Positions 7,766 through 50,323 of a stretch of DNA of 64,000 nucleotides are shown here, in pieces (position 1 is the stretch's first letter; every line of letters starts with the position of its first letter). Position numbers and translations under genes: made by a program. Under the pieces are notes generated by a model, which ran no database searches, had not been told where the DNA came from, and worked only from the letters and a program-made list of their open reading frames with translations. The DNA lies in the NCBI RefSeq assembly GCF_045037415.1, contig NZ_CP173438.1; one strand, written 5' to 3'. This DNA is from Escherichia coli (lineage in GTDB: Bacteria > Pseudomonadota > Gammaproteobacteria > Enterobacterales > Enterobacteriaceae).

Positions 7766-8791
7766 GTGAAAGCGAAGAAGCAGGAAACTGCCGCGACCAT
7801 GAAAGACGTTGCCCTCAAGGCAAAAGTCTCTACAGCGACTGTCTCCCGAGCATTAATGAATCCCGATAAAGTCTCCCAGGCCACCCGTAATCGGGTTGAA
7901 AAAGCGGCCCGGGAAGTGGGTTATTTACCGCAGCCTATGGGGCGCAACGTCAAGCGTAATGAATCCCGCACCATTCTGGTGATTGTCCCGGATATCTGCG
8001 ACCCTTTCTTTAGCGAAATTATTCGCGGTATCGAAGTTACGGCGGCAAATCACGGATATCTGGTGCTGATTGGCGACTGTGCGCATCAAAATCAGCAGGA
8101 AAAAACCTTTATCGATTTGATCATCACCAAGCAAATTGATGGCATGTTGTTGCTGGGTTCAAGGCTGCCGTTTGATGCCAGCATTGAGGAACAGCGTAAT
8201 CTGCCGCCGATGGTGATGGCGAACGAATTTGCACCGGAACTGGAGCTGCCTACCGTTCATATCGACAATCTGACCGCCGCATTTGATGCAGTAAATTATT
8301 TATATGAGCAAGGGCATAAACGGATTGGCTGTATAGCCGGTCCCGAAGAGATGCCGCTGTGTCACTACCGCCTGCAAGGCTATGTTCAGGCGCTGCGTCG
8401 CTGCGGCATTATGGTTGATCCGCAATACATCGCCCGTGGCGACTTCACCTTCGAAGCCGGAAGCAGAGCAATGCAACAGCTGCTTGATCTTCCACAACCG
8501 CCTACTGCTGTCTTCTGCCATAGCGATGTGATGGCGCTCGGCGCACTTTCTCAGGCAAAACGTCAGGGGCTGAAAGTCCCGGAAGACCTTTCCATAATCG
8601 GTTTTGATAACATCGACCTGACGCAATTTTGTGATCCGCCGCTGACAACCATCGCGCAGCCGCGTTACGAAATCGGTCGGGAAGCTATGCTGTTATTGCT
8701 TGATCAAATGCAGGGGCAACACGTTGGCAGTGGCTCTCGTTTAATGGACTGCGAACTTATCATCCGGGGATCAACACGCGCGTTACCTTAA
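7766..8791 (+). CDS. cytR: LacI-family transcriptional repressor CytR
   Basis: N-terminal HTH (ATMKDVALKAKVSTATVSRAL) plus periplasmic-binding-protein-like effector domain; GTG start at 7766 gives 341 aa. Confidence 0.9.
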   Translation: MKAKKQETAATMKDVALKAKVSTATVSRALMNPDKVSQATRNRVEKAAREVGYLPQPMGRNVKRNESRTILVIVPDICDPFFSEIIRGIEVTAANHGYLVLIGDCAHQNQQEKTFIDLIITKQIDGMLLLGSRLPFDASIEEQRNLPPMVMANEFAPELELPTVHIDNLTAAFDAVNYLYEQGHKRIGCIAGPEEMPLCHYRLQGYVQALRRCGIMVDPQYIARGDFTFEAGSRAMQQLLDLPQPPTAVFCHSDVMALGALSQAKRQGLKVPEDLSIIGFDNIDLTQFCDPPLTTIAQPRYEIGREAMLLLLDQMQGQHVGSGSRLMDCELIIRGSTRALP

Positions 8792-8882
8792 AGTAAACCT
8801 TTAAGACTGCCGTGACTGGTCAAAGGCCCGCCGCTTAAGTAACATGGCGGGCTGACGAACGAATAAATACAGCGAAACGATA

Positions 8883-9842
8883 GTGGCACAACGAGATTAT
8901 GTACGCCGCAGCCAACCGGCACCTTCGCGGCGAAAAAAGAGCACCTCACGGAAAAAGCAACGAAATCTGCCTGCGGTTTCTCCCGCTATGGTCGCTATTG
9001 CTGCCGCCGTTCTTGTGACCTTTATCGGTGGTCTGTACTTCATTACGCATCACAAGAAAGAAGAGTCCGAGACGCTGCAAAGCCAGAAAGTGACCGGAAA
9101 CGGACTACCACCAAAACCAGAAGAACGCTGGCGCTACATTAAAGAGCTGGAAAGTCGCCAGCCGGGTGTGCGTGCGCCCACAGAACCTTCTGCCGGTGGT
9201 GAAGTGAAAACGCCGGAGCAACTGACACCAGAACAACGCCAGCTTCTTGAACAAATGCAGGCCGATATGCGCCAGCAGCCAACGCAGCTGGTTGAAGTTC
9301 CGTGGAATGAGCAGACGCCGGAACAGCGTCAGCAAACGCTACAGCGCCAGCGTCAGGCGCAGCAATTAGCGGAGCAGCAACGCCTGGCTCAGCAGTCGCG
9401 TACGACTGAACAAAGCTGGCAGCAGCAGACGCGTACGTCGCAAGCCGCGCCGGTACAGGCGCAACCGCGCCAGTCTAAACCGGCTTCTACTCAGCAGCCG
9501 TACCAGGATCTGCTGCAAACCCCTGCGCACACGACCGCGCAGTCGAAGCCGCAGCAAGCTGCGCCGGTTGCTCGTGCCGCTGACGCGCCAAAACCGACGG
9601 CGGAGAAAAAAGACGAACGCCGCTGGATGGTGCAGTGCGGTTCGTTCAGAGGCGCGGAACAGGCAGAGACGGTACGTGCTCAGCTGGCGTTCGAAGGCTT
9701 TGACTCAAAAATTACCACCAACAATGGCTGGAATCGTGTGGTGATTGGCCCGGTGAAAGGCAAAGAGAACGCAGACAGCACCCTCAATCGCTTGAAGATG
9801 GCGGGTCATACAAACTGCATTCGGCTCGCCGCCGGGGGTTGA
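8883..9842 (+). CDS. ftsN: cell division protein FtsN
   Basis: 319 aa, GTG start; short cytoplasmic tail, one TM helix, Gln/Pro-rich linker, C-terminal SPOR domain. Confidence 0.9.
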   Translation: MAQRDYVRRSQPAPSRRKKSTSRKKQRNLPAVSPAMVAIAAAVLVTFIGGLYFITHHKKEESETLQSQKVTGNGLPPKPEERWRYIKELESRQPGVRAPTEPSAGGEVKTPEQLTPEQRQLLEQMQADMRQQPTQLVEVPWNEQTPEQRQQTLQRQRQAQQLAEQQRLAQQSRTTEQSWQQQTRTSQAAPVQAQPRQSKPASTQQPYQDLLQTPAHTTAQSKPQQAAPVARAADAPKPTAEKKDERRWMVQCGSFRGAEQAETVRAQLAFEGFDSKITTNNGWNRVVIGPVKGKENADSTLNRLKMAGHTNCIRLAAGG

Positions 9843-9866
9843 AACCCTCAAAATCCCCCCCATCTA
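9839..9866 (+). promoter_or_regulatory. sigma-32 heat-shock promoter of hslVU
   Basis: TTGAAA (9839-9844) then 12-13 nt spacer then CCCCATCTA, matching the sigma-32 consensus; the -35 overlaps the ftsN stop codon. Confidence 0.6.
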
Positions 9867-9879
9867 TAATTGCATTATG

Positions 9880-9899
9880 CCCCGTACTTTTGTACGGGG
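9880..9899 (+). other. perfect 8-bp stem-loop in the hslVU 5' leader
   Basis: CCCCGTAC-TTTT-GTACGGGG, 35 nt upstream of the hslV ATG. Confidence 0.45.
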
Positions 9900-9934
9900 T
9901 TTGTACTCTGTATTCGTAACCAAGGGGTCAGCTC

Positions 9935-10465
9935 GTGACAACTATAGTAAGCGTACGCCGTAACGGCCATGTGGTCATCGCTGGTGATGGTCAGGCCACG
10001 TTGGGCAATACCGTAATGAAAGGCAACGTGAAAAAGGTCCGCCGTCTGTACAACGACAAAGTCATCGCGGGCTTTGCGGGCGGTACTGCGGATGCTTTTA
10101 CGCTGTTCGAACTGTTTGAACGTAAACTGGAAATGCATCAGGGCCATCTGGTCAAAGCCGCCGTTGAGCTGGCGAAAGACTGGCGTACCGATCGCATGCT
10201 GCGCAAACTTGAAGCACTGCTGGCAGTCGCGGATGAAACTGCATCGCTTATCATCACCGGTAACGGTGACGTGGTGCAGCCAGAAAACGATCTTATTGCT
10301 ATCGGCTCCGGCGGCCCTTACGCCCAGGCTGCGGCGCGCGCGCTGTTAGAAAACACTGAACTTAGCGCCCGTGAAATTGCTGAAAAGGCGTTGGATATTG
10401 CAGGCGACATTTGCATCTATACCAACCATTTCCACACCATCGAAGAATTAAGCTACAAAGCGTAA
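9935..10465 (+). CDS. hslV: ATP-dependent protease subunit HslV
   Basis: 176 aa; N-terminal Thr ([20 protein letters not shown]) typical of proteasome-like HslV. Confidence 0.95.
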
Positions 10466-10474
10466 GGATCTCCC

Positions 10475-11806
10475 ATGTCTGAAATGACCCCACGCGAAAT
10501 CGTCAGCGAACTGGATAAGCACATCATCGGCCAGGACAACGCCAAGCGTTCCGTGGCGATTGCTCTGCGTAACCGCTGGCGTCGCATGCAGCTCAACGAA
10601 GAGCTGCGCCATGAAGTGACCCCGAAAAATATCCTGATGATCGGCCCGACCGGTGTCGGTAAAACTGAAATCGCCCGTCGTCTGGCTAAGCTGGCGAATG
10701 CGCCGTTCATCAAAGTTGAAGCGACCAAATTCACCGAAGTGGGCTATGTCGGTAAGGAAGTGGATTCTATTATTCGCGATCTGACCGATGCCGCCGTGAA
10801 AATGGTACGCGTCCAGGCTATCGAGAAAAACCGTTATCGCGCTGAAGAACTGGCAGAAGAACGTATTCTCGACGTACTGATCCCACCGGCTAAAAATAAC
10901 TGGGGACAGACCGAACAGCAGCAGGAGCCGTCCGCTGCTCGTCAGGCATTCCGCAAAAAACTGCGTGAAGGCCAGCTTGATGACAAAGAAATTGAGATCG
11001 ATCTTGCCGCAGCACCGATGGGCGTTGAAATTATGGCTCCTCCGGGCATGGAAGAGATGACCAGCCAGCTGCAGTCCATGTTCCAGAACCTGGGCGGTCA
11101 GAAGCAAAAGGCGCGTAAGCTGAAAATCAAAGACGCCATGAAGCTGCTGATTGAAGAAGAAGCGGCGAAACTGGTGAACCCGGAAGAGCTGAAGCAAGAT
11201 GCTATCGACGCTGTTGAGCAGCACGGGATCGTGTTTATCGACGAAATCGACAAAATCTGTAAGCGCGGCGAGTCTTCCGGTCCGGATGTTTCTCGTGAAG
11301 GCGTTCAGCGTGACCTGCTGCCGCTGGTAGAAGGTTGCACTGTTTCCACCAAACACGGGATGGTCAAAACTGACCACATTCTGTTTATCGCTTCTGGCGC
11401 GTTCCAGATTGCGAAACCGTCTGACCTGATCCCGGAACTGCAAGGTCGTCTGCCAATCCGCGTTGAGCTGCAGGCACTGACCACCAGCGACTTTGAGCGT
11501 ATTTTGACCGAGCCGAATGCCTCTATCACCGTGCAGTACAAAGCACTGATGGCAACTGAGGGCGTAAATATCGAGTTTACCGACTCCGGTATTAAGCGCA
11601 TCGCGGAAGCGGCATGGCAGGTGAACGAATCTACCGAAAACATCGGTGCTCGTCGTTTACATACCGTTCTGGAGCGTTTAATGGAAGAGATTTCCTACGA
11701 CGCCAGCGATTTAAGCGGTCAAACTATCACTATTGACGCAGATTATGTGAGCAAACATCTGGATGCGTTGGTGGCAGATGAAGATCTGAGCCGTTTTATC
11801 CTATAA
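10475..11806 (+). CDS. hslU: ATP-dependent protease ATPase subunit HslU
   Basis: 443 aa AAA+ ATPase; Walker A GPTGVGKT; 9 nt after hslV. Confidence 0.95.
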
Positions 11807-11835
11807 TCGCGTTCAATCATTTTCATCATTGTTTG

Positions 11836-11860
11836 ATGGGGCTGAAAGGCCCCATTTTTA
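11836..11860 (+). terminator. rho-independent terminator after hslU
   Basis: ATGGGGC / GCCCCAT stem followed by TTTTTATT. Confidence 0.55.
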
Positions 11861-11872
11861 TTGGCGCGTATT

Positions 11873-12799
11873 ATGACTGAACAACAAATTAGCCGAACTC
11901 AGGCGTGGCTGGAAAGTTTACGACCTAAAACCCTCCCCCTCGCCTTTGCTGCAATTATCGTCGGGACGGCGCTGGCATGGTGGCAAGGTCACTTCGATCC
12001 ACTGGTCGCCCTGCTGGCATTGATTACCGCCGGGCTATTACAGATCCTTTCTAACCTCGCCAATGATTACGGCGATGCGGTAAAAGGCAGCGATAAACCT
12101 GACCGCATTGGGCCGCTACGCGGCATGCAAAAAGGGGTCATTACCCAGCAAGAGATGAAACGGGCGCTCATTATTACCGTCGTGCTCATCTGTCTCTCCG
12201 GGCTGGCACTGGTTGCAGTGGCGTGCCATACGCTGGCCGATTTTGTCGGTTTCCTGATTCTTGGCGGGTTGTCGATCATTGCCGCTATCACCTACACCGT
12301 GGGCAATCGTCCTTATGGTTATATCGGTTTGGGTGATATTTCCGTACTGGTTTTCTTTGGCTGGTTGAGCGTCATGGGGAGCTGGTATTTACAGGCTCAT
12401 ACATTGATTCCGGCACTGATCCTTCCGGCAACCGCATGCGGCCTGCTGGCAACGGCAGTACTGAACATTAATAACCTGCGTGATATCAATAGCGACCGCG
12501 AAAACGGCAAAAACACGCTGGTGGTGCGCTTAGGTGCAGTAAACGCGCGTCGTTATCATGCCTGCCTGCTGATGGGCTCACTGGTGTGTCTAGCGCTGTT
12601 TAATCTCTTTTCGCTGCATAGCCTGTGGGGCTGGCTGTTCCTGCTGGCGGCACCGTTGCTGGTGAAGCAAGCTCGTTATGTGATGCGCGAAATGGACCCG
12701 GTGGCGATGCGACCAATGCTGGAACGCACTGTCAAAGGAGCGTTACTGACTAACCTGCTGTTTGTTTTAGGGATATTCCTAAGCCAGTGGGCAGCATAA
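11873..12799 (+). CDS. menA: 1,4-dihydroxy-2-naphthoate octaprenyltransferase
   Basis: polytopic UbiA-family membrane protein; ORF track begins at a TTG at 11861, I prefer the ATG at 11873 (MTEQQISRTQAWLESL). Confidence 0.88.
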   Translation: MTEQQISRTQAWLESLRPKTLPLAFAAIIVGTALAWWQGHFDPLVALLALITAGLLQILSNLANDYGDAVKGSDKPDRIGPLRGMQKGVITQQEMKRALIITVVLICLSGLALVAVACHTLADFVGFLILGGLSIIAAITYTVGNRPYGYIGLGDISVLVFFGWLSVMGSWYLQAHTLIPALILPATACGLLATAVLNINNLRDINSDRENGKNTLVVRLGAVNARRYHACLLMGSLVCLALFNLFSLHSLWGWLFLLAAPLLVKQARYVMREMDPVAMRPMLERTVKGALLTNLLFVLGIFLSQWAA

Positions 12800-12891
12800 C
12801 TGACAAATATCAATTAACAATTGATGATTTTGCCAACAGCCCACATAGCGCGATATACTGAAAATTCTCGCAGCAACTGAATGTTAAGCCT

Positions 12892-13377
12892 ATGAAATAC
12901 GATACTTCCGAGCTTTGTGACATCTATCAAGAAGATGTTAACGTCGTGGAACCGCTGTTCTCCAACTTTGGCGGACGGGCGTCGTTTGGCGGACAAATAA
13001 TCACGGTAAAATGTTTCGAGGACAACGGGTTGCTGTACGATCTGCTCGAACAGAATGGCCGTGGTCGTGTTCTTGTCGTCGATGGCGGAGGTTCTGTTCG
13101 CCGCGCACTGGTCGATGCTGAACTGGCGCGTCTGGCAGTACAAAATGAATGGGAAGGCCTGGTCATTTACGGCGCGGTGCGTCAGGTAGATGACCTGGAA
13201 GAGTTGGATATCGGCATCCAGGCGATGGCGGCAATTCCGGTTGGTGCCGCTGGCGAAGGCATTGGCGAAAGCGATGTCCGCGTCAATTTTGGCGGTGTCA
13301 CCTTCTTCTCCGGCGACCATCTTTATGCCGACAATACCGGGATTATTCTTTCAGAAGATCCGCTGGATATTGAATGA
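12892..13377 (+). CDS. rraA: RNase E regulator RraA (MenG-like)
   Basis: 161-aa [32 protein letters not shown]... Confidence 0.92.
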
Positions 13378-13378
13378 T

Positions 13379-13407
13379 AAAAAAGGCACCGCAAGGTGCC
13401 TTTTTTC
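13379..13407. terminator. bidirectional terminator between convergent rraA and zapB
   Basis: GGCACC-GCAA-GGTGCC hairpin flanked by A6 and T6. Confidence 0.6.
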
Positions 13408-13461
13408 TGCGTTACCTGTTGGCCTACACAGTAAAGAAATTACGCGAAAGATGAAGTGTAA

Positions 13462-13755
<294 letters not shown>

Positions 13756-13999
13756 TTACCGGTGACGCCTTAATAAATACGAGCGCACTTTAGTTAGCTC
13801 CGATTGTATGAAGCCGCGCCATCGCTGTCCAGCGGCACGCCTTGCAGATTACGGTTTGCCACACTTTTCATCCTTCTCCTGGTGACATAATCCACATCAA
13901 TCGAAAATGTTAATAAATTTGTTGCGCGAATGATCTAACAAACATGCATCATGTACAATCAGATGGAATAAATGGCGCGATAACGCTCATTTTATGACG

Positions 14000-14060
14000 G
14001 AGCACACACATTTTAAGTTCGATATTTCTCGTTTTTGCTCGTTAACGATAAGTTTACAGC
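14000..14060 (+). promoter_or_regulatory. glpFKX promoter region with GlpR-operator-like half-sites
   Basis: AAGTTCGATA and CGTTAACGATAAG elements resembling GlpR operator half-sites, 70-130 bp upstream of glpF. Confidence 0.4.
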
Positions 14061-14131
14061 ATGCCTACAAGCATCGTGGAGGTCCGTGACTTTCACGCAT
14101 ACAACAAACATTAACTCTTCAGGATCCGATT

Positions 14132-16508
<2,377 letters not shown>

Positions 16509-37605: not shown

Positions 37606-37823
37606 GCCGGATGCGGCACAAGTGCCTTATCCGGCCTACGGGTCGGCAATAGTTGTAGGCCTGATAAGACGCGACAGCGTCGCATCAGGCATTGATTGCC
37701 GGATGCGGCACGAGTGCCTTATCCGGCCTACGGGTCAGCAACAGTTGTAGGCCTGATAAGACGCGACAGCGTCGCATCAGGCATTGATTGCCGGATGTGG
37801 CGCGAGTGCCTTATCCGGCCTAC
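37606..37823. repeat. tandem BIME array (five REP elements, 92-bp period) between rhaA and rhaD
   Basis: alternating GCCGGATGCGGCAC(A/G)AGTGCCTTATCCGGCCTAC and GTAGGCCTGATAAGACGCGACAGCGTCGCATCAGGC units at 37606, 37655, 37698, 37747 and 37790. Confidence 0.75.
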
Positions 37824-37866: not shown

Positions 37867-38691
37867 ATGCAAAACATAACCCAGTCCTGGTTTGTCCAGG
37901 GAATGATCAAAGCCACCACCGATGCCTGGCTGAAAGGCTGGGACGAGCGCAACGGCGGCAACCTGACGCTGCGCCTGGATGACGCCGATATCGCACCATA
38001 TCACGACAATTTTCACCAACAACCGCGCTATATCCCGCTCAGCCAGCCCATGCCTTTACTGGCAAATACACCGTTTATTGTCACCGGCTCCGGCAAATTC
38101 TTCCGTAACGTCCAGCTTGATCCTGCGGCTAACTTAGGCATCGTAAAAGTCGACAGCGACGGCGCGGGCTACCACATTCTTTGGGGGTTAACCAACGAAG
38201 CCGTTCCCACTTCTGAACTTCCGGCTCACTTTCTCTCCCACTGCGAGCGCATTAAAGCCACCAACGGTAAAGATCGGGTGATCATGCACTGCCACGCCAC
38301 CAACCTGATCGCCCTCACCTATGTACTTGAAAACGACACCGCGGTCTTCACTCGCCAACTGTGGGAAGGCAGCACCGAGTGTCTGGTGGTATTCCCGGAT
38401 GGCGTTGGCATTCTGCCGTGGATGGTGCCCGGCACGGACGAAATCGGCCAGGCAACTGCACAAGAGATGCAAAAACATTCGCTGGTGTTGTGGCCCTTCC
38501 ACGGTGTGTTCGGCAGCGGGCCGACGCTGGATGAAACCTTCGGTTTAATCGACACCGCAGAAAAATCAGCACAAGTATTAGTGAAGGTTTATTCGATGGG
38601 CGGCATGAAACAGACCATCAGCCGTGAAGAGTTGATAGCGCTCGGCCAGCGTTTCGGCGTTACACCACTCGCCAGTGCGCTGGCGCTGTAA
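37867..38691 (+). CDS. rhaD: rhamnulose-1-phosphate aldolase
   Basis: ORF track start at 37696 runs through the REP array; the ATG at 37867 ([21 protein letters not shown]) gives 274 aa. Confidence 0.93.
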
Positions 38692-38700
38692 GGAGCAAAC

Positions 38701-39015
38701 ATGATCCGCAAAGCCTTTGTCATGCAGGTAAACCCCGACGCCCACGAAGAGTATCAGCGTCGGCATAATCCCATCTGGCCGGAACTGGAAGCAGTGCTGA
38801 AATCTCACGGTGCGCATAACTACGCCATCTATCTCGACAAAGCGCGTAATCTGCTATTTGCCACGATAGAGATTGAATCTGAAGAGCGGTGGAATGCGGT
38901 TGCCAGTACAGATGTTTGCCAACGTTGGTGGAAATATATGACCGACGTTATGCCCGCTAATGCGGATAACAGCCCAGTCAGTAGCGAACTGCAAGAAGTG
39001 TTTTACCTGCCTTAA
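38701..39015 (+). CDS. rhaM: L-rhamnose mutarotase
   Basis: 104-aa [49 protein letters not shown]. Confidence 0.9.
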
Positions 39016-39055
39016 TGAGTTGCGGTGCCGGAAAATATCCAGCACCGCCCTTTCA

Positions 39056-40450
39056 TCAGAAGAAGTATTTAAAGCGAACGCGTGCGCCGTAACGGTCATC
39101 ACTATCGTCGCCGTGTATCTTATCGCCGTCGCTATCCAGAATGGAGTAATACGTGCCGAGGTAAATATTAAAGTTCTCCATATCCATCACATTAGCGAAC
39201 TGATAAGACGCATGAATGGTGTGAATGTTGTATGTTCCTTCATCATCAATCCAGCAATCGTTATCACAAACCACGCCACTAAATTCATCAATCTTATTAT
39301 GTGCGTAGATATAACCCAGCTCGAAACGTTTCCACAGCGCGTTAATCCCAGCGGTGAAATCTTTCTCATTATTAGCATCTAAATAGGCGGTATTAAGATT
39401 AACCACGATGCCATTTTCCGGATCGGTTTTCAGGCCATTCCAGGTCATGCTCATGCCATAACCGGTACGATCGGACTGATCGACAAAATTACCCTTGCTA
39501 TCGGTATAACCATAAGCATTATTTACCACGTTCGCTTCCATCGCTGCGGAAACGGTGAATTCTTCCGTCGGCGACCAGGCAATTACCGGACGCAGATAAG
39601 CAACATTTTTCTGCTGTTCCATATCGCGTCCATGATAATTACCGTCGTTATATAAAGATGTTCCGTCTTCCAGTAACGTGTTTAATTCAAAATACCAGTT
39701 ATCGAGTTGTTTGCTGACGAGGAAATTACCGCCAGCGTTAGAACGCCCGCGGCCCTCTTTCATCATATAGATATAACCGCTGCCATCGTCATAAAGATCG
39801 TTCGCAGTATTACCGGAATGTTCAACAAAGGTATCCTGATTCAGCGGGAACATATCGTAGGCTTCAAAACGGCCTACTTTGACCTTCCAGTCGTTTTCTT
39901 TGCCAAAGAAGAAAACCGCATCATCGATATTTACTGAACCGTGCATATCCCCCAGCGGTTGTGCGGAGAACCCAGCGAAATAGCCATTATCCAGTTTTCG
40001 CATACCATCAAAACCTAACAGAATACGACCATTGAGATTCCACTGTTCATTAGTGGGATCGCTATTCACATCAGCGTTGGTCATTGCCAGCAGGCCATGA
40101 TTACTTTCCGCATCCATATTAAATTCTACGTCACCGTAGATTTTTAAATCGCCATACCCTGAAAGCAGGAGATTAGGCGGGGTGGCGTTTTTCTTCTCTG
40201 ACTCCGTCGTTGATTGACCGTTTACCGGCGTGTTGCCCTGTGCGGTTTTAATTTCGCGGATCTCGGCGGCTTGTTGTGTCTGAAGCTGTTTAACCTGCCC
40301 CTCTGCTTTTGCTGCCCGCATTTCTGCCGCTTCCAGGCGTTCTTCCAGCAATGCCATGCGTTGTTCCAGCGTTAAATGCTGTGTTTTTGCCATACCGGTA
40401 CTACATGCCAATAATAAACCGATGGCTAAAGATAATGTCGATTTTTTCAT
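39056..40450 (-). CDS. putative outer-membrane sugar-porin-like protein with N-terminal coiled-coil
   Basis: 464 aa; signal peptide MKKSTLSLAIGLLLACSTGMA, about 50 aa of heptad-like Ala/Glu/Gln-rich sequence, then an aromatic-rich region ending in the C-terminal FKYFF typical of beta-barrel OMPs; AGGGAA Shine-Dalgarno 8 nt upstream; family assignment is from memory of ScrY/RafY-type glycoporins and is uncertain. Confidence 0.65.
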   Translation of the reverse strand: MKKSTLSLAIGLLLACSTGMAKTQHLTLEQRMALLEERLEAAEMRAAKAEGQVKQLQTQQAAEIREIKTAQGNTPVNGQSTTESEKKNATPPNLLLSGYGDLKIYGDVEFNMDAESNHGLLAMTNADVNSDPTNEQWNLNGRILLGFDGMRKLDNGYFAGFSAQPLGDMHGSVNIDDAVFFFGKENDWKVKVGRFEAYDMFPLNQDTFVEHSGNTANDLYDDGSGYIYMMKEGRGRSNAGGNFLVSKQLDNWYFELNTLLEDGTSLYNDGNYHGRDMEQQKNVAYLRPVIAWSPTEEFTVSAAMEANVVNNAYGYTDSKGNFVDQSDRTGYGMSMTWNGLKTDPENGIVVNLNTAYLDANNEKDFTAGINALWKRFELGYIYAHNKIDEFSGVVCDNDCWIDDEGTYNIHTIHASYQFANVMDMENFNIYLGTYYSILDSDGDKIHGDDSDDRYGARVRFKYFF

Positions 40451-40803
40451 TATTTACGTTCCCTGAAATAAAGGAGACCCTACGCTTTCCAAAAGGAATA
40501 CGTATATAGAGAAATATAAGGTGTGCACTTTCGAATTTTTAATCCAACTTCAGCAGGCCGATGGATAGTATCCCGCCATATAATATGAGTAAATCCGCTG
40601 ATTTCCTGGAACGTGAGGAATATAACAATAGTGCCGTTTTTAACTAAATATCGTAAAAAATATTAGATATGATTCACGCTGACTCATAAGCCACAAATAT
40701 AAATAACGCTTAAACAAATTATCTGAGATATTTTAACATTCACAAAATCATTAAATAATGATACTTTATTCACAAAATTTATCCTTCACTCTGCTTTATA
40801 TTG

Positions 40804-41349
40804 TTACGACTTCGTGACATATCCGTGCTCATCACAAACCCGCCCCGCGATTACAATTAACTGAAATATTTCATCGACCATTTCGTTGTAATCGCATAAC
40901 GCTCGTGGAAATGAGTCTTCGGCCATCCAGCTTGAGTTTGCGTCCTGAAGTTGCTCTTTATCCCAGTCAGAGTACGGGACTTTATCTCTGATGCGGCGAA
41001 CGTATTTTTTAGCCTCGAGTTGATACTGGCCTGCCGAATTAATAAACGAGAAATTCATGCCGCTTTTATCCGCTTCTTTGGCTTGCGCCACCAGCGTTTC
41101 CAGTTCAGACACTTTCTTCATTGCCGCTTCTGCATCAAACTTATCTTGCGATATCAGGTTATTAATTTGTTTCGCTGAAATCATGACTGCCAGAGAGTAG
41201 TAGTGGAATGTTTTCCCTTTCGCAAACGCATCGTCTTTATAATTTTCCTGGGTGTAATATTTATCCATTTCGTTAATGGTATTACCCAACGCTACGGCAG
41301 CATCAATATAACTCACCGCCACGCCATCAATAGGTTGCAGCGCAGGCAT
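40804..41349 (-). CDS. hypothetical helical protein (K-12 yiiG position; homology unverified)
   Basis: 184-aa ORF from a GTG at 41358, or 181 aa from the ATG at 41349; no signal peptide; begins just after a hairpin downstream of fdhD. Confidence 0.45.
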   Translation of the reverse strand: MPALQPIDGVAVSYIDAAVALGNTINEMDKYYTQENYKDDAFAKGKTFHYYSLAVMISAKQINNLISQDKFDAEAAMKKVSELETLVAQAKEADKSGMNFSFINSAGQYQLEAKKYVRRIRDKVPYSDWDKEQLQDANSSWMAEDSFPRALCDYNEMVDEIFQLIVIAGRVCDEHGYVTKS

Positions 41350-41402
41350 TAACGCCACTACACGCGTTTTGTTTATAAAAAAATAACAAAATTCACGAAA
41401 TG

Positions 41403-41445: not shown

Positions 41446-42279
41446 TTAATTGCTCAAACGCTGCGGATGGGTATAAACCGTCGCCCGACCCGGTTTACAA
41501 AAGCCCACCAGCGTCAGATTACAGCGCTCAGCCACTTCTACAGCAAGTGTGGTCGCGGCAGACACCGCAAACAAAATCTCTACGCCGCACATCGCCGACT
41601 TTTGCACCATTTCATAACTGGCACGGCTGGAAACCAGCACCGCACCTTGCTGCCAGCTTTCCCCTTCTTGTGATCGGCGGCCTAACAGTTTGTCCAGCGC
41701 CACATGGCGACCCACGTCTTCATGCCCGCCGACCAGTTCGCCAGATGGCAACATCCATGCAGCGGCGTGAGTACAACCAGTCAGTTGCCCCACTGGCTGG
41801 AAATCATTGAGATGACGTAATGCATCATCCAGTTTGTTGAGATCAAACGTCTGGGTGAACGGCAGCGGCTGCACCGGTTTACCGATATCGTTAAGCTGTT
41901 CTACACCGCATACGCCACAGCCCGTACGTCCCGCCAGCGCCCGGCGACGTTCCTTCAACCCCATAAAGCGGCGGCTGGAAAGCTCAATTTGTACTTCCAG
42001 GCCATTACAGGAAGGAACGACATCCATGCCGAAGATATCGCGCGGGCTTTCGATAATTCCTTCGGAAAGCGAAAAACCGAGCGCAAAGTACTCAAGGTCT
42101 TTGGGCGACGCCATCATCACCACGTGCGAAATGCCGTTGTAGACCAGCGCAACGGGAACTTCTTCCGCCACCTCATCTAACCGTGGGTGTTGTAAATCAT
42201 CACGCCGCCATAACTCAATTTGACGAACACCTGTGATATTTGTCACATTCTCGATTTCTTTTTGCTGTGTTTTTTTCAC
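41446..42279 (-). CDS. fdhD: formate dehydrogenase sulfurtransferase/accessory protein FdhD
   Basis: 277-aa ORF divergent from fdoG. Confidence 0.92.
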
Positions 42280-42472: not shown

Positions 42473-45400
42473 ATGCAGGTCAGCAGAAGGCAGTTCTTTA
42501 AGATCTGCGCTGGCGGTATGGCAGGCACCACGGCAGCGGCACTGGGTTTTGCACCCAGCGTAGCACTCGCGGAAACCCGGCAGTATAAACTGCTGCGCAC
42601 CCGCGAAACCCGTAATACCTGCACCTATTGTTCCGTAGGCTGTGGGCTGTTGATGTACAGCCTCGGTGACGGAGCAAAAAACGCCAAAGCATCTATCTTC
42701 CATATCGAAGGTGACCCGGATCACCCGGTCAACCGCGGAGCACTTTGTCCGAAAGGCGCTGGCCTGGTGGATTTCATCCACTCCGAAAGCCGTCTGAAGT
42801 TTCCGGAATACCGTGCGCCAGGTTCTGATAAATGGCAGCAAATCAGTTGGGAAGAGGCGTTTGATCGCATCGCCAAACTGATGAAAGAAGACCGCGATGC
42901 AAACTACATTGCGCAAAACGCCGAAGGCGTGACTGTTAACCGCTGGCTCTCCACCGGGATGCTGTGTGCTTCCGCGTCGAGCAACGAAACCGGCTATTTA
43001 ACGCAAAAATTCTCCCGCGCGCTGGGTATGCTCGCGGTCGACAACCAGGCGCGTGTCTGACACGGACCAACGGTAGCAAGTCTTGCTCCAACATTTGGTC
43101 GCGGTGCGATGACCAACCACTGGGTCGACATCAAGAATGCCAACCTCGTCGTGGTGATGGGCGGTAACGCCGCTGAAGCTCACCCGGTCGGGTTCCGCTG
43201 GGCGATGGAAGCCAAAATTCACAACGGCGCGAAGCTGATTGTGATCGATCCTCGCTTTACGCGTACAGCGGCGGTGGCTGACTACTATGCCCCTATCCGT
43301 TCCGGTACTGACATTGCTTTCCTGTCAGGCGTATTGCTGTACCTGCTGAACAATGAAAAATTCAACCGCGAATACACCGAAGCCTATACCAACGCTAGCC
43401 TGATCGTGCGTGAGGATTACGGCTTTGAAGATGGCCTGTTCACCGGCTACGACGCGGAAAAACGCAAGTACGATAAGTCCACCTGGACTTACGAACTGGA
43501 CGAAAACGGCTTCGCCAAACGCGATACTACCCTGCAACATCCACGTTGCGTGTGGAACTTGCTGAAACAGCACGTTTCCCGCTACACGCCAGATGTGGTT
43601 GAAAACATCTGCGGTACGCCAAAAGACGCATTCCTGAAAGTCTGCGAATACATCGCAGAGACCAGTGCTCACGATAAAACTGCCTCGTTCCTTTACGCCC
43701 TCGGCTGGACGCAACACTCCATCGGTGCGCAGAACATCCGTACGATGGCGATGATCCAGTTGCTGCTCGGCAATATGGGGATGGCTGGCGGCGGCGTTAA
43801 CGCCCTGCGCGGTCACTCCAATATTCAGGGGCTGACGGACCTGGGGCTGCTGTCGCAGAGTCTGCCAGGTTACATGACGCTGCCAAGCGAGAAGCAGACC
43901 GATCTGCAAACTTACCTTACCGCCAACACGCCGAAACCACTGCTGGAAGGCCAGGTTAACTACTGGGGCAACTACCCGAAATTCTTCGTCTCTATGATGA
44001 AGGCCTTCTTTGGTGATAAAGCGACGGCGGAAAATAGCTGGGGCTTTGACTGGTTGCCGAAGTGGGATAAAGGCTACGACGTCCTGCAATACTTCGAGAT
44101 GATGAAAGAGGGCAAGGTCAATGGCTATATCTGCCAGGGCTTTAACCCTGTTGCCTCATTCCCGAACAAAAACAAAGTGATCGGCTGTCTGTCGAAGCTG
44201 AAATTCCTCGTGACTATCGACCCGCTGAACACTGAAACCTCTAACTTCTGGCAGAACCACGGTGAACTGAACGAAGTTGACTCGTCGAAGATCCAGACCG
44301 AAGTGTTCCGTCTGCCATCGACCTGCTTCGCGGAAGAGAACGGTTCAATCGTTAACTCTGGTCGCTGGTTGCAGTGGCACTGGAAAGGTGCGGACGCCCC
44401 GGGGATTGCGCTGACTGATGGCGAGATCCTCTCCGGTATCTTCCTGCGCTTGCGCAAGATGTATGCCGAACAGGGTGGCGCGAACCCGGACCAGGTGCTG
44501 AACATGACCTGGAACTACGCCATCCCGCATGAGCCGAAGTCGGAAGAAGTGGCGATGGAGAGCAACGGTAAGGCGCTGGCCGATATTACCGATCCGGCAA
44601 CCGGTGCGGTTATTGTCAAGAAAGGCCAACAACTTAGCTCGTTCGCTCAACTGCGCGATGACGGTACAACCTCCTGTGGCTGCTGGATTTTCGCCGGTAG
44701 CTGGACGCCAGAAGGCAACCAGATGGCGCGTCGTGATAACGCCGATCCGTCTGGCCTCGGTAACACGCTGGGCTGGGCATGGGCATGGCCGCTTAACCGC
44801 CGCATTCTGTATAACCGCGCCTCCGCAGATCCGCAGGGTAACCCGTGGGATCCGAAGCGTCAGTTGCTGAAATGGGACGGCACTAAGTGGACCGGCTGGG
44901 ATATTCCGGACTACAGCGCAGCGCCTCCGGGCAGTGGCGTCGGGCCGTTTATCATGCAGCAGGAAGGCATGGGGCGTCTGTTTGCCCTCGATAAGATGGC
45001 GGAAGGTCCGTTCCCGGAACACTACGAGCCGTTTGAAACGCCGCTGGGAACTAACCCGCTGCATCCAAACGTTATCTCGAATCCGGCGGCGCGTATCTTT
45101 AAAGACGATGCCGAAGCATTGGGGAAAGCCGATAAGTTCCCGTATGTCGGAACCACCTATCGTCTGACCGAGCACTTCCACTACTGGACCAAACACGCGC
45201 TGTTGAACGCGATTTTGCAACCAGAGCAGTTTGTGGAAATCGGGGAGTCGCTGGCGAATAAACTTGGCATTGCCCAGGGCGATACTGTGAAAGTCTCCTC
45301 CAACCGTGGCTATATCAAAGCCAAAGCGGTAGTGACCAAACGTATTCGCACGCTGAAAGCAAACGGCAAAGATATCGATACCATCGGTATTCCGATTCAC

Positions 45401-45523
45401 TGGGGCTATGAAGGTGTTGCGAAAAAAGGCTTTATTGCCAATACGTTGACGCCATTCGTCGGTGATGCGAACACGCAGACGCCGGAGTTTAAGTCCTTCC
45501 TTGTGAATGTGGAAAAGGTGTAA
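42473..45523 (+). CDS. fdoG: formate dehydrogenase-O major subunit (selenocysteine-containing)
   Basis: ORFs 42473-43060 and 43109-45523 are in the same frame, separated only by TGA at 43058-43060, read as Sec; combined 1016 aa; Tat motif RRQFFK; N-terminal 4Fe-4S Cys cluster. Confidence 0.92.
43061..43110 (+). other. putative SECIS stem-loop directing Sec insertion at the fdoG UGA
   Basis: immediately 3' of the in-frame TGA; contains AGCAAG-T-CTTGCT inverted repeat. Confidence 0.5.
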
Positions 45524-48177: not shown

Positions 48178-48396
48178 TTACCATTTCTCGCGCAGCTTAC
48201 GCAGGTATTCGACACCATCTTCCTCACACCCTTGCCAGATGCCAGGAACACTGGTTCTTGCTGTTTGCGATTGATTTACCAGGTATTGATCTACCGCTTC
48301 CCGTAATAGGTCTGCACGCGGAAGATTACGCTGCACCTCAAGATCATCAAGTTGCTTAATCACCTCATTCGATAAATCGAGTAAAATTCTGCTCAT
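48178..48396 (-). CDS. ribbon-helix-helix (CopG-like) DNA-binding protein, yiiF-like
   Basis: [39 protein letters not shown] has the RHH beta-strand/helix pattern; 72 aa from the ATG at 48396 (alternative starts 48402, 48420); paralogous to the ORF at 50508-50726. Confidence 0.75.
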
Positions 48397-48510
48397 ATCC
48401 ATACCTGCCAGAGGGTTCATAAATATCTCGCCAATATCATTTTGAATCTATGGAGAGAAAAGTACCCTTGTCGAATCTTTAAAGAAAGCGCATTTACGCA
48501 TCACTTTTTA

Positions 48511-48556
48511 TTTTTGCGAGGCGTTTTCCAGATACGATGTAACAGTTGCAGTTATT
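48511..48556. promoter_or_regulatory. conserved promoter/operator-like motif, copy A
   Basis: TTTTTGCGAGGCGTTTTCCAGATACGATGTAACAGTTGCAGTTATT, recurring at 50820-50866 and in part at 52483-52504. Confidence 0.4.
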
Positions 48557-48709
48557 ACGAAAACCAGTAAAAAATGGAAGTGAAAACAGTCGTGTGAAAA
48601 TTTCTACTCTTTCTGAATTTACTCTATAAAGTTGCCTTTCTCACATCCAATAGCTTAATGTCATCTACCAAGAAAAAACGATAAGTCGTCAGGGAACGGA
48701 ACAGATATA

Positions 48710-49558
48710 ATGAATAAAAACGAATCAATTTCTTACACCGAAATGCAAAAATTTTTTGCCAGAGAAATTAAGGAAGTAGGCGGTAGGCCCATCACTTCTA
48801 AGAATTTAGAGTTAAGTCTGCTACCCATTCACGCCAGGGAAAACCTTTCTGCGCCAGAAATGCCGTGGTATACCGAAGTTAATGATATCTATATGGAGTT
48901 CAGACGCTCACCATTCTGGATGGTTGCCGGTTATGTATTCCTGGGATTTATGCTTTCACTACTTTCCATCTCGATATTATCTATTGTTGCATTCTCATTT
49001 TATGAGATGGGCTTTAATAGTGACTTGTTATTTCTGTATCTACTTGCATTTGTGCTTGGCTGTTTTATATTACCTGGCGCTGCAAAAATTGCTTTTTTCA
49101 CGCCACATTATCTTCCTATAAGATTTAACAGAAAAACACAAAAAATTTATGTTTCAGATTTAATTATTGAAGGCAATATCTTCTTTGGAAAAATAAAACT
49201 CACTTTTCATGAATATGACTGGAAAGATGTTGAAGGTTGGGAGGTGAGTAGACATTTCAGTAAAAGTATGCCTTACAATGGATTACATCTGGTAGTTAAT
49301 AGAGAAAATGATATAAATGCACTGCGACAGACACGCGTTTATACAACCCGTGCACCGTGGAGTGCACAAGAAATGGCAAGACAAAAGAACTATATCCCCC
49401 AAATATGGCTTTATTGCCATAATTATATGGCTTATAAAACTGTGTCTGGTGCAAAGAACAAACCACAACCATTTATTTTTTTAAGAAACAATTGGCTATT
49501 TAAATGGCCAAAAGAAATGGATAAACGTTCCAGAAGCTCAAAGATACTGTCTGAATAA
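48710..49558 (+). CDS. hypothetical membrane protein (two adjacent TM helices), unknown family
   Basis: 282-aa ORF in low-GC DNA (first 200 nt of the ORF about 38% GC by hand count); TM hairpin FWMVAGYVFLGFMLSLLSISILSIVAFSF / LLFLYLLAFVLGCFILPGAAKIAFF; purine-rich SD-like stretch upstream; no family recognised. Confidence 0.6.
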   Translation: MNKNESISYTEMQKFFAREIKEVGGRPITSKNLELSLLPIHARENLSAPEMPWYTEVNDIYMEFRRSPFWMVAGYVFLGFMLSLLSISILSIVAFSFYEMGFNSDLLFLYLLAFVLGCFILPGAAKIAFFTPHYLPIRFNRKTQKIYVSDLIIEGNIFFGKIKLTFHEYDWKDVEGWEVSRHFSKSMPYNGLHLVVNRENDINALRQTRVYTTRAPWSAQEMARQKNYIPQIWLYCHNYMAYKTVSGAKNKPQPFIFLRNNWLFKWPKEMDKRSRSSKILSE

Positions 49559-49582
49559 GCATAATAATGAAGGATTTCGACT

Positions 49583-50323
49583 ATGATTAACAAACTTACT
49601 CTTCCTTGGCCGGTATTATTTTTAGAATTTTTTGTGCGAGAAGTTGCCTTTAAGGGTAAGGGAATTGTTCGTTCTACATTACCAGCAGATGCCCATTTTT
49701 ATACCGGTGGGTCAAAAGCCCTGCGTTATCACCTACAACCAGGAAACCAATGGCCAAACTATATATGGCATGATGATATAGGTGATATTGTACCGTTTCC
49801 TCTACCCTCACTTCCGCTTACATTTACCGCTAACCGACCCACATTTAATTCCAGAGAATTAGCGGATAAATGGATGAAGGATAATATTCATACCGCTGTC
49901 ATCATGGCGGGGGAATTTCTGTCTGCTAATGAATGGATTCGCCGCAAAAACCAGCTTAAAACTAGTGTACACCCTGCGTCAGTTGCTTCTTTCGCACCCT
50001 ATGGCTTTAACATTAACCAGTGTGATGACGATGGCAATCTTTGGACTAATTTCCCACGTCCCCACATCAAATTAAAAATCGCACCAGGAAAAACAGCTTG
50101 TTTTCTCTGCCGCCGGGAAGAGCTTTTATTTGGTTATGATGAAGCACATAATCACTACCAGCCGAATCTTAATCTGGTTTTATTTGTGAAAAATCATGGG
50201 TTGCATAAGGATGTTTACCTAAAATCTCATGACGATAAAAGTGAATACGATAGCAGAATATTATGTAACGAAAAATTTACCACTTATGATTTCCGTAAAA
50301 ACCGGTCCAGATACAGCTTTTGA
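49583..50323 (+). CDS. hypothetical soluble protein, unknown family
   Basis: 246-aa ORF starting 24 nt after the upstream gene with a GAAGGA Shine-Dalgarno; AT-rich codon usage; no motif recognised. Confidence 0.6.
   Translation: MINKLTLPWPVLFLEFFVREVAFKGKGIVRSTLPADAHFYTGGSKALRYHLQPGNQWPNYIWHDDIGDIVPFPLPSLPLTFTANRPTFNSRELADKWMKDNIHTAVIMAGEFLSANEWIRRKNQLKTSVHPASVASFAPYGFNINQCDDDGNLWTNFPRPHIKLKIAPGKTACFLCRREELLFGYDEAHNHYQPNLNLVLFVKNHGLHKDVYLKSHDDKSEYDSRILCNEKFTTYDFRKNRSRYSF

Follow-up and report, generated by a model that had tools for sequence, protein, structure and literature searches.

The window analyzed here, a 64,000-bp stretch of an Escherichia coli chromosome (contig NZ_CP173438.1), carries between the genes rhaM and fdhD a gene for an outer-membrane porin of the RafY family, referred to below as rafY2. 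The open reading frame is intact and spans 39056..40450 on the minus strand, with the stop codon at 39056-39058; it starts with ATG and encodes 464 amino acids with the C-terminus RFKYFF. Its flanks are rhaM (38701-39015, plus strand) and fdhD (41446-42279, minus strand). A first-pass annotation, made from the sequence alone, had described a single 464-residue gene in this interval; the gene is as described, but the interval is also occupied by a remnant of yiiG (DUF3829) at 40804..41358 on the minus strand. This 184-codon reading frame was recognized by blastn against the O157 and K-12 loci, and is flagged in RefSeq as a pseudogene (“incomplete; missing N-terminus”). The stop codons of rhaM and the porin gene face each other across 40 bp (39016..39055), and this gap contains a strong GC-rich hairpin. 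Folding of 39010-39062 gave -27.3 kcal/mol (z -6.6) for the minus strand and -20 kcal/mol (z -5.3) for the plus strand, and the hairpin looks like a terminator shared by both genes. A scan of 39000-41400 against Rfam gave no match.

The family assignment rests on a strong profile match. Residues 104-464 align with the full length of the Pfam model PF16966 (Porin_8, “Porin-like glycoporin RafY”; model positions 1-372 of 372) with E=9.7e-155 and a score of 515.6. This is the only Pfam barrel match of the protein, and the same model is matched by 63 of 63 aligned relatives. The identical locus is named “carbohydrate porin” in RefSeq (WP_000749934.1). An NCBIfam scan yielded no model for the porin or for the yiiG remnant, and the RefSeq name is therefore not derived from an NCBIfam hidden Markov model (HMM). 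The exact protein is public on at least 1000 contigs and has the UniRef entry E2QIS8_ECOLX (“Porin”), while its neighbours in the AlphaFold database (AFDB) are named raffinose porin, glycoporin or carbohydrate porin. The copy in O157 is 97% identical to the window protein, and O157:H7 was previously noted to lack rafRABD and yet to possess a rafY homologue annotated as rafY2 (PMC4809568, 2016). By sequence comparison, the gene is thus identified as a known and named chromosomal paralogue of the plasmid raffinose porin RafY. Family, gene and exact protein sequence are all public already, the founding member of the family has been characterized, and the gene, which is annotated in thousands of genomes, is of an ordinary, already known kind; what is added here is its history of reciprocal deletion, its ancestral position on the rhaM flank, a 16-stranded model resembling general porins, and the evidence for selection.

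The protein begins with a signal peptide (residues 1-21, MKKSTLSLAIGLLLACSTGMA followed by KT; 40388..40450, minus strand) in which a positively charged n-region precedes a hydrophobic core and a cleavage motif of the form G-x-A, with a signal peptidase I site predicted after A21. The cleavage motif reads TGMA|KT in the window porin and TGFA|KT in most orthologues (...LLLVANTGFA|KT). A lipoprotein reading of Cys16 (codon 40403-40405), where LLLAC fits a loose lipobox, was considered and rejected: the signal peptidase I site is conserved and the cysteine is not, being limited to E. coli-type chromosomal and some plasmid alleles, with V-A-N at this place in other genera (LLLVAN...). The lipobox-like LLLAC is probably incidental.

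The signal peptide is followed by a predicted periplasmic helix with conserved a/d heptads (residues ~26-70; 40241..40375, minus strand). Across the family, residues ~26-60 follow the pattern TLEQRLxxLExRLxxAExRAxxAExxVxxL. The first-pass annotation had proposed about 50 residues of coiled coil, of which the heptads stand and the length proved slightly generous, the core heptads covering ~35 residues and the single helix modelled by AlphaFold2 43 (residues 28-70, with pLDDT of ~88-90 at residues 31-60). The helix resembles the Sugarporin_N domain (PF11471): the match of the window porin to this profile is below significance (E=0.08, residues 27-52), and among the 63 family members E<=1e-3 is reached in 18 and E<=0.1 in 32, with a best value of 5.9e-7. 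Many distant members possess no N-terminal extension at all; they comprise 350-390 amino acids, and their alignment starts at query residue ~98. A low-complexity linker rich in Q, T, E and K (residues ~71-95; 40166..40240, minus strand) is predicted to be disordered, with pLDDT below 50 at residues 71-91 and poor conservation in the family alignment.

The remainder of the protein (residues ~96-464; 39059..40165, minus strand) is predicted to form a 16-stranded beta-barrel ending in a C-terminal Phe. The AlphaFold2 model, built on the 63-sequence family alignment, has a mean pLDDT of 82.5 and a pTM of 0.72, and places 16 strands of high pLDDT between residues 100 and 463. The barrel-like body ending in FKYFF that had been read from the sequence is thus borne out by the predicted topology. 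The same strand number is given for the RafY family by the Transporter Classification Database (TCDB 1.B.15; PMC4827864). The model also contains a long non-strand segment at residues 195-240, which may fold into the barrel lumen as the constriction loop does in general porins. Neither phmmer nor an hmmsearch with the family profile found a relevant chain in the PDB at E<=10; the RafY family is therefore without a solved structure. As modelled, the porin combines a periplasmic helix that resembles the one of ScrY with a barrel of the general-porin kind. The earlier suggestion of a ScrY/RafY-type glycoporin can be divided accordingly: the RafY assignment holds, the N-terminal helix may be related to that of ScrY, and the barrel has no match to the ScrY/LamB profiles.

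The closest characterized relative is the plasmid-borne RafY of the pRSD2-type raffinose operon, which shares with the window porin its length of 464 residues, the succession of signal peptide, coiled-coil helix, linker and barrel, and the C-terminal RFKYFF. The porin gene of the F-type plasmid p02A16003_A_NDM, whose product equals the UniRef entry B1VC75_ECOLX (“RafY”), is 87% identical to the window gene in nucleotides and 79% in protein over 450 residues. On this plasmid the porin gene closes an operon of LacI regulator, alpha-galactosidase (GH36), major facilitator superfamily (MFS) transporter, GH32 and porin genes, which corresponds to the arrangement rafR-A-B-D-Y. The window copy differs in being chromosomal and located at the rhaM site, and rafR, rafA, rafB and rafD are absent from its rhaM-fdhD interval. 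The linkage with raf genes is a feature of the plasmid operon and does not define the RafY family, many members of which are orphans or belong to other glycan operons. The two proteins diverge in the signal peptide, on the coiled-coil surface and in a C-terminal loop (SDGDKIHGDDSDD in the window, SNCRYSNCDITDD on the plasmid).

The first-pass annotation had regarded the porin gene as an alternative occupant of the place held by frvABXR in K-12. Comparison of the interval between strains gave a different picture, as ~1,390 genomes hold both the porin and frvABXR. In O157:H7 the gene order is rhaM, porin (minus strand), a 478-bp gap, frvABXR (plus strand), yiiG (minus strand) and fdhD (minus strand). 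Relative to this arrangement, blastn revealed three deletions in the window. The first, of 4.8 kb (O157 locus 10211-15001), starts 19 bp before the frvA start codon and reaches 19 bp into yiiG at its 3' end; it removed frvABXR, and its junction lies at ~40871 in the window. The second, of ~125 bp, falls inside yiiG (O157 locus ~15351-15475; window ~41210-41219), and the third, of ~471 bp, covers the 5' end of yiiG with its upstream region (O157 locus ~15625-16095; window ~41351-41358). Strain 22AR0750 has the same large deletion and a longer yiiG remnant, and the decay was therefore stepwise. The reciprocal event is found in K-12, where 1.7 kb comprising the porin gene and ~290 bp upstream of it is replaced by 111 unrelated bp, with frvABXR and yiiG intact. 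The locus is thus an example of reciprocal loss, in which the porin is gone from K-12 and frv is gone from the window. Both are retained in O157 and in an NEBExpress strain, in which the same porin-plus-rhaM stretch is matched.

The distribution of these arrangements was assessed in 5,426 complete E. coli genomes, classified by BLAST coverage, with the porin counted as present when at least 80% of the gene was covered. The porin gene is carried by 2,556 genomes (~47%), and the frv-deletion junction of the window by 1,164 (~21%). By subtraction, the full order rhaM-porin-frvABXR-yiiG-fdhD accounts for the ~1,390 genomes mentioned above, and ~2,870 genomes (~53%, K-12 included) contain no porin gene. 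A further 349 records hold only the paralogue from the raf operon, which is 80-90% identical; of all matching places, plasmids account for 199. The patchy spread of the gene within E. coli is explained by deletions. Independent IS1 insertions were found at the locus in two other strains: one clips rhaM at its 3' end, and the second truncates the porin gene at its 3' end. An activation of the porin by IS1, as known for the bgl operon, was rejected because neither copy is upstream of the porin gene, the first lying at the rhaM end and the second within the 3' part of the porin gene.

Orthologues with 75-85% identity, likewise convergent with rhaM, were identified in Citrobacter spp., C. rodentium, Kluyvera and Klebsiella sp. 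B345, and their upstream neighbours differ: the place taken by frvABXR in E. coli, and by nothing in the window, is occupied by an HTH-cupin regulator gene with azlCD or by a rafR-A-B module. In Klebsiella sp. B345, genes for a LacI regulator, a GH36 enzyme and a LacY-like transporter directly precede the porin gene and form a chromosomal rafR-A-B-porin cluster between fdhD and rhaM. In K. grimontii, a module of LacI, MFS and beta-helix genes lies between the porin gene and rhaM. In Citrobacter and Kluyvera, the porin gene is as orphaned as in the window, with the HTH-cupin regulator gene and azlCD as upstream neighbours; the regulator gene, which is divergent from azlCD, most likely belongs with azlCD. 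More distant members are found at operon ends, after GH130 and ABC transporter genes in Buttiauxella and after AraC, MFS and GH78 alpha-L-rhamnosidase genes in Budvicia. The porin gene is therefore ancestral on the rhaM flank, and catabolic modules came and went beside it. Its presence at the same site in other genera argues against a recent arrival by horizontal transfer, a mode of origin at which the first-pass annotation had hinted, and equally against an obligatory coupling to frv. Taken together, the observation reported in that annotation is confirmed and its interpretation is partly supported.

Selection on the gene was estimated from dN/dS by the method of Nei and Gojobori. Between the window and O157 alleles the ratio is 0.05 at a dS of 0.23, and between the window allele and a second, divergent allele from an frv-less locus it is 0.049; the values for the barrel and the N-terminal part are 0.027 and 0.115. 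The porin is under strong purifying selection, also where frv is gone. Alongside this selection, the gene is lost by the K-12-type deletion and by sporadic IS1 insertion, and it is therefore useful but dispensable. As a separate observation, dS between E. coli porin alleles is ~0.2 even where both alleles have the frv-deletion junction in common (the window, O157 and 22AR0750 loci were compared), which suggests old allelic lineages or recombination across the interval.

The region upstream of the porin gene was correctly singled out before as AT-rich: 40451-40803 has a GC content of 31.7%, compared with 45.2% in the porin gene and 51.0% in the window, and falls in the lowest 0.1% of all 353-bp segments of the 64-kb window. 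Homology to O157 extends the control region to 40451..40871 (33.5% GC). This segment represents the whole divergent intergenic region between the porin gene and frvA of O157-type strains, minus ~19 bp beside frvA and a 38-bp indel; window positions 38600-40871 align to O157 locus 7901-10210, and frvA starts at 10229 in that locus. From base composition, silencing of the porin gene by H-NS is plausible. A phylogenetic footprint of this region revealed a few blocks that E. coli shares with Citrobacter, C. rodentium or Kluyvera in an otherwise poorly alignable sequence (mean column identity 46%). One block, present in all four of these groups, contains a candidate CRP site (TGTTATATTCCTCACG, of the form TGTTA-N6-TCACG; 40612..40627, minus strand) that matches the core TGTGA-N6-TCACA at 8 of 10 positions, a quality for which ~0.2 matches are expected per 450 bp. 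Another conserved block, GATTTAC, holds the -35 element of a candidate sigma-70 promoter read by hand (40565..40593, minus strand), with TTTACT at 40593-40588, a 17-bp spacer and the -10 element TACTAT at 40570-40565. This promoter would put the transcription start near 40558 and the CRP-like site at -61.5.

An inverted repeat, ATTCC-N4-GGAA(T) in E. coli and Citrobacter, is located at 40483-40502 (minus strand), ~35-50 nt upstream of the porin ATG; Kluyvera and Klebsiella possess palindromes of different sequence at the equivalent place. The repeat may be a protein-binding site. Its interpretation as a conserved hairpin of the 5' untranslated region is unproven, as RNAalifold predicted no consensus pairs in nine orthologous leaders.

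Based on these data, we propose that rafY2 encodes an orphan RafY-family porin whose wide pore gives oligosaccharides an accessory route for diffusion, and that the gene has its own, probably catabolite-controlled promoter; we assign this reading a probability of about 80%. The family membership, the domain layout, the intact reading frame, the purifying selection, and the synteny and deletion history are direct observations, and trimer formation, pore properties, substrates and regulation are proposed, the first three from the family. The precursor would be exported by the Sec system and inserted by the BAM complex, in keeping with its C-terminal Phe. Three 16-stranded barrels would then associate into a trimer, as expected from the family, and the three N-terminal helices would form a coiled coil in the periplasm. 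The resulting wide and weakly selective channel would allow di- to oligosaccharides such as raffinose, sucrose and maltodextrins to enter faster at low concentration, and would feed whichever inner-membrane sugar systems are present rather than one dedicated partner. In Escherichia, frvABXR-yiiG lay beside the porin gene, with divergent transcription from a shared AT-rich region, and the later loss of frvABXR and most of yiiG in the lineage of the window left the porin with this control region. Transcription from a promoter in this region, probably under catabolite control through the CRP-like site, would be low in rich laboratory media. RafY itself carries several oligosaccharides, raffinose among them (PMC4827864), and a RafY-family homologue of Salmonella is induced by lactulose (PMC13304739).

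Several points weigh against this proposal. The absence of the gene from ~53% of complete E. coli genomes means that it is dispensable. The proposed pore properties are those of plasmid RafY, a protein of 79% identity whose differences from the window porin cluster in the loops and in the C-terminal loop region. Both the CRP site and the promoter were proposed from sequence patterns, and an automatic promoter scan of the upstream region returned other weak candidates with no enrichment over shuffled sequences. In addition, the searched literature contained no data on expression, localisation or transport for the chromosomal copy.

The nearest regulatory parallel is GlyP of Klebsiella pneumoniae, a RafY-family porin that is repressed by the LacI-type regulator GlyR and silent until the repressor mutates, with derepression being selected in ompK35/36 mutants (bioRxiv 10.64898/2026.03.29.715108). 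Together with the lactulose-induced homologue of Salmonella, it shows members of the family to be quiet by default and open to induction. GlyP is a normally poorly expressed accessory porin with a pore larger than that of the major porins (same source), and by analogy rafY2 may be of the same kind; the glyP operon includes a repressor, a permease and a hydrolase, whereas E. coli rafY2 has no adjacent repressor. A more specific, rather unlikely scenario is that rafY2 is a normally silent spare large-channel porin that could be switched on by promoter-up, hns or crp-region mutations after loss of OmpC or OmpF under carbapenem or cephalosporin pressure. Such activation would bring nutrient uptake back, with increased entry of drugs as part of the price, and rafY2 would be an E. 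coli counterpart of GlyR/GlyP with no dedicated repressor. The importance of the gene is modest, with a possible bearing on carbohydrate scavenging in the gut or on antibiotic permeability in ~47% of complete E. coli genomes. A minor gap would be closed by an experimental structure in which a 16-stranded barrel and a Sugarporin_N-like coiled coil occur together.

Among the alternatives to an accessory oligosaccharide channel, the association with frv deserves to be considered first. The porin could be the dedicated outer-membrane entry for the substrate of the cryptic Frv phosphotransferase system (PTS), co-regulated with it from the shared divergent region, in which case the copy in the window would be a functionless leftover. 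The porin gene and frvA are indeed divergent neighbours 478 bp apart in O157-type genomes, porin and frv are kept together in ~1,390 genomes, their shared intergenic region survives in the window, and a second CRP-like site is present on the frvA side (40759-40774). This dedicated role is nonetheless quite improbable, as the porin occupies the same rhaM-adjacent place in genera with no frv there, ~53% of E. coli genomes have frv without the porin and 21% the porin without frv, and divergent frv-less alleles still show a dN/dS of 0.049. A literature search for a link between frvA and a porin, in turn, returned nothing relevant.

The losses at this locus could also be read as signs that the porin gene is silent and about to decay into a pseudogene, making no contribution to the cell. 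Three deletions have already turned the adjacent yiiG into a pseudogene and frvABXR is no longer present, the porin is deleted in K-12-type strains and truncated by one of the sporadic IS1 insertions, and the upstream region is extremely AT-rich, as for H-NS targets. Against such a relic stand an unbroken reading frame in 2,556 genomes, dN/dS values of 0.05 for the gene and 0.027 for the barrel (dS ~0.2), the retention of same-site orthologues in at least four genera, and upstream blocks shared between genera; we regard this alternative as improbable to a similar, slightly greater degree.

The structural data bear on a third alternative, a sugar-specific porin of the LamB/ScrY type with an 18-stranded barrel, a saturable binding site and a greasy slide. 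ScrY, BglH and LamB are 18-stranded, some of them with a Sugarporin_N domain, and perform a job, the entry of oligosaccharides, that is similar to the one proposed by analogy for the window porin; the N-terminal periplasmic coiled-coil module of ScrY-type proteins would be a common feature, as the helix of the window porin resembles Sugarporin_N, with a match below significance in this protein (E=0.08) and significant ones in 18 of 63 relatives. RafY is also said, from work by Ulmke et al. in 1997, to complement lamB and scrY mutants. In a TCDB-based analysis, the RafY family was placed nearest to the sugar porin family (PMC4827864). Nevertheless, Pfam, phmmer against the PDB and profile hmmsearch detected no match of the barrel to LamB/ScrY profiles or solved chains, and the predicted AlphaFold2 fold has 16 strands instead of 18, which makes a LamB/ScrY-type channel very unlikely. 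The 16-stranded trimeric porins DcaP of Acinetobacter baumannii, OprP, Omp32, OmpU and VhChiP are only 8-14% identical to the window porin, and belong to other families with other substrates.

Finally, a channel for rhamnose-containing oligosaccharides serving the rha regulon, to which the conserved rhaM adjacency in Escherichia, Citrobacter, Kluyvera and Klebsiella and the Budvicia family member closing an AraC/MFS/GH78 alpha-L-rhamnosidase operon might point, is hardly credible, since convergent orientation with a strong hairpin between the stops excludes co-transcription of rhaM and the porin, the E. coli rhaM-fdhD locus has no rhamnosidase, K-12 uses rhamnose without the porin, and the adjacency is explained by inherited gene order.

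Three further features of the window were noted outside the rhaM-fdhD interval. Its lowest-GC 1.4-kb stretch (36% GC) is part of 48322-50323, between the ribbon-helix-helix genes yiiF and yiiE, and contains two reading frames on the plus strand, 48710-49558 (282 aa, “DUF6708 domain-containing protein” in RefSeq) and 49583-50323 (246 aa, “hypothetical protein”), neither of which has an NCBIfam or PADLOC match. The stretch occurs in only 564 of the 5,426 genomes and appears to be a small strain-specific insertion. The gene for the formate dehydrogenase alpha subunit appears as two reading frames (42473-43060 and 43109-45523) because of its selenocysteine codon, at which Rfam identified a SECIS_3 element (84.3 bits; 43055-43113, plus strand). 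Two tandem matches to naRNA4, a REP-derived nucleoid-associated RNA, are located in the rhaA-rhaD intergenic region (37658-37728 and 37750-37820, minus strand).

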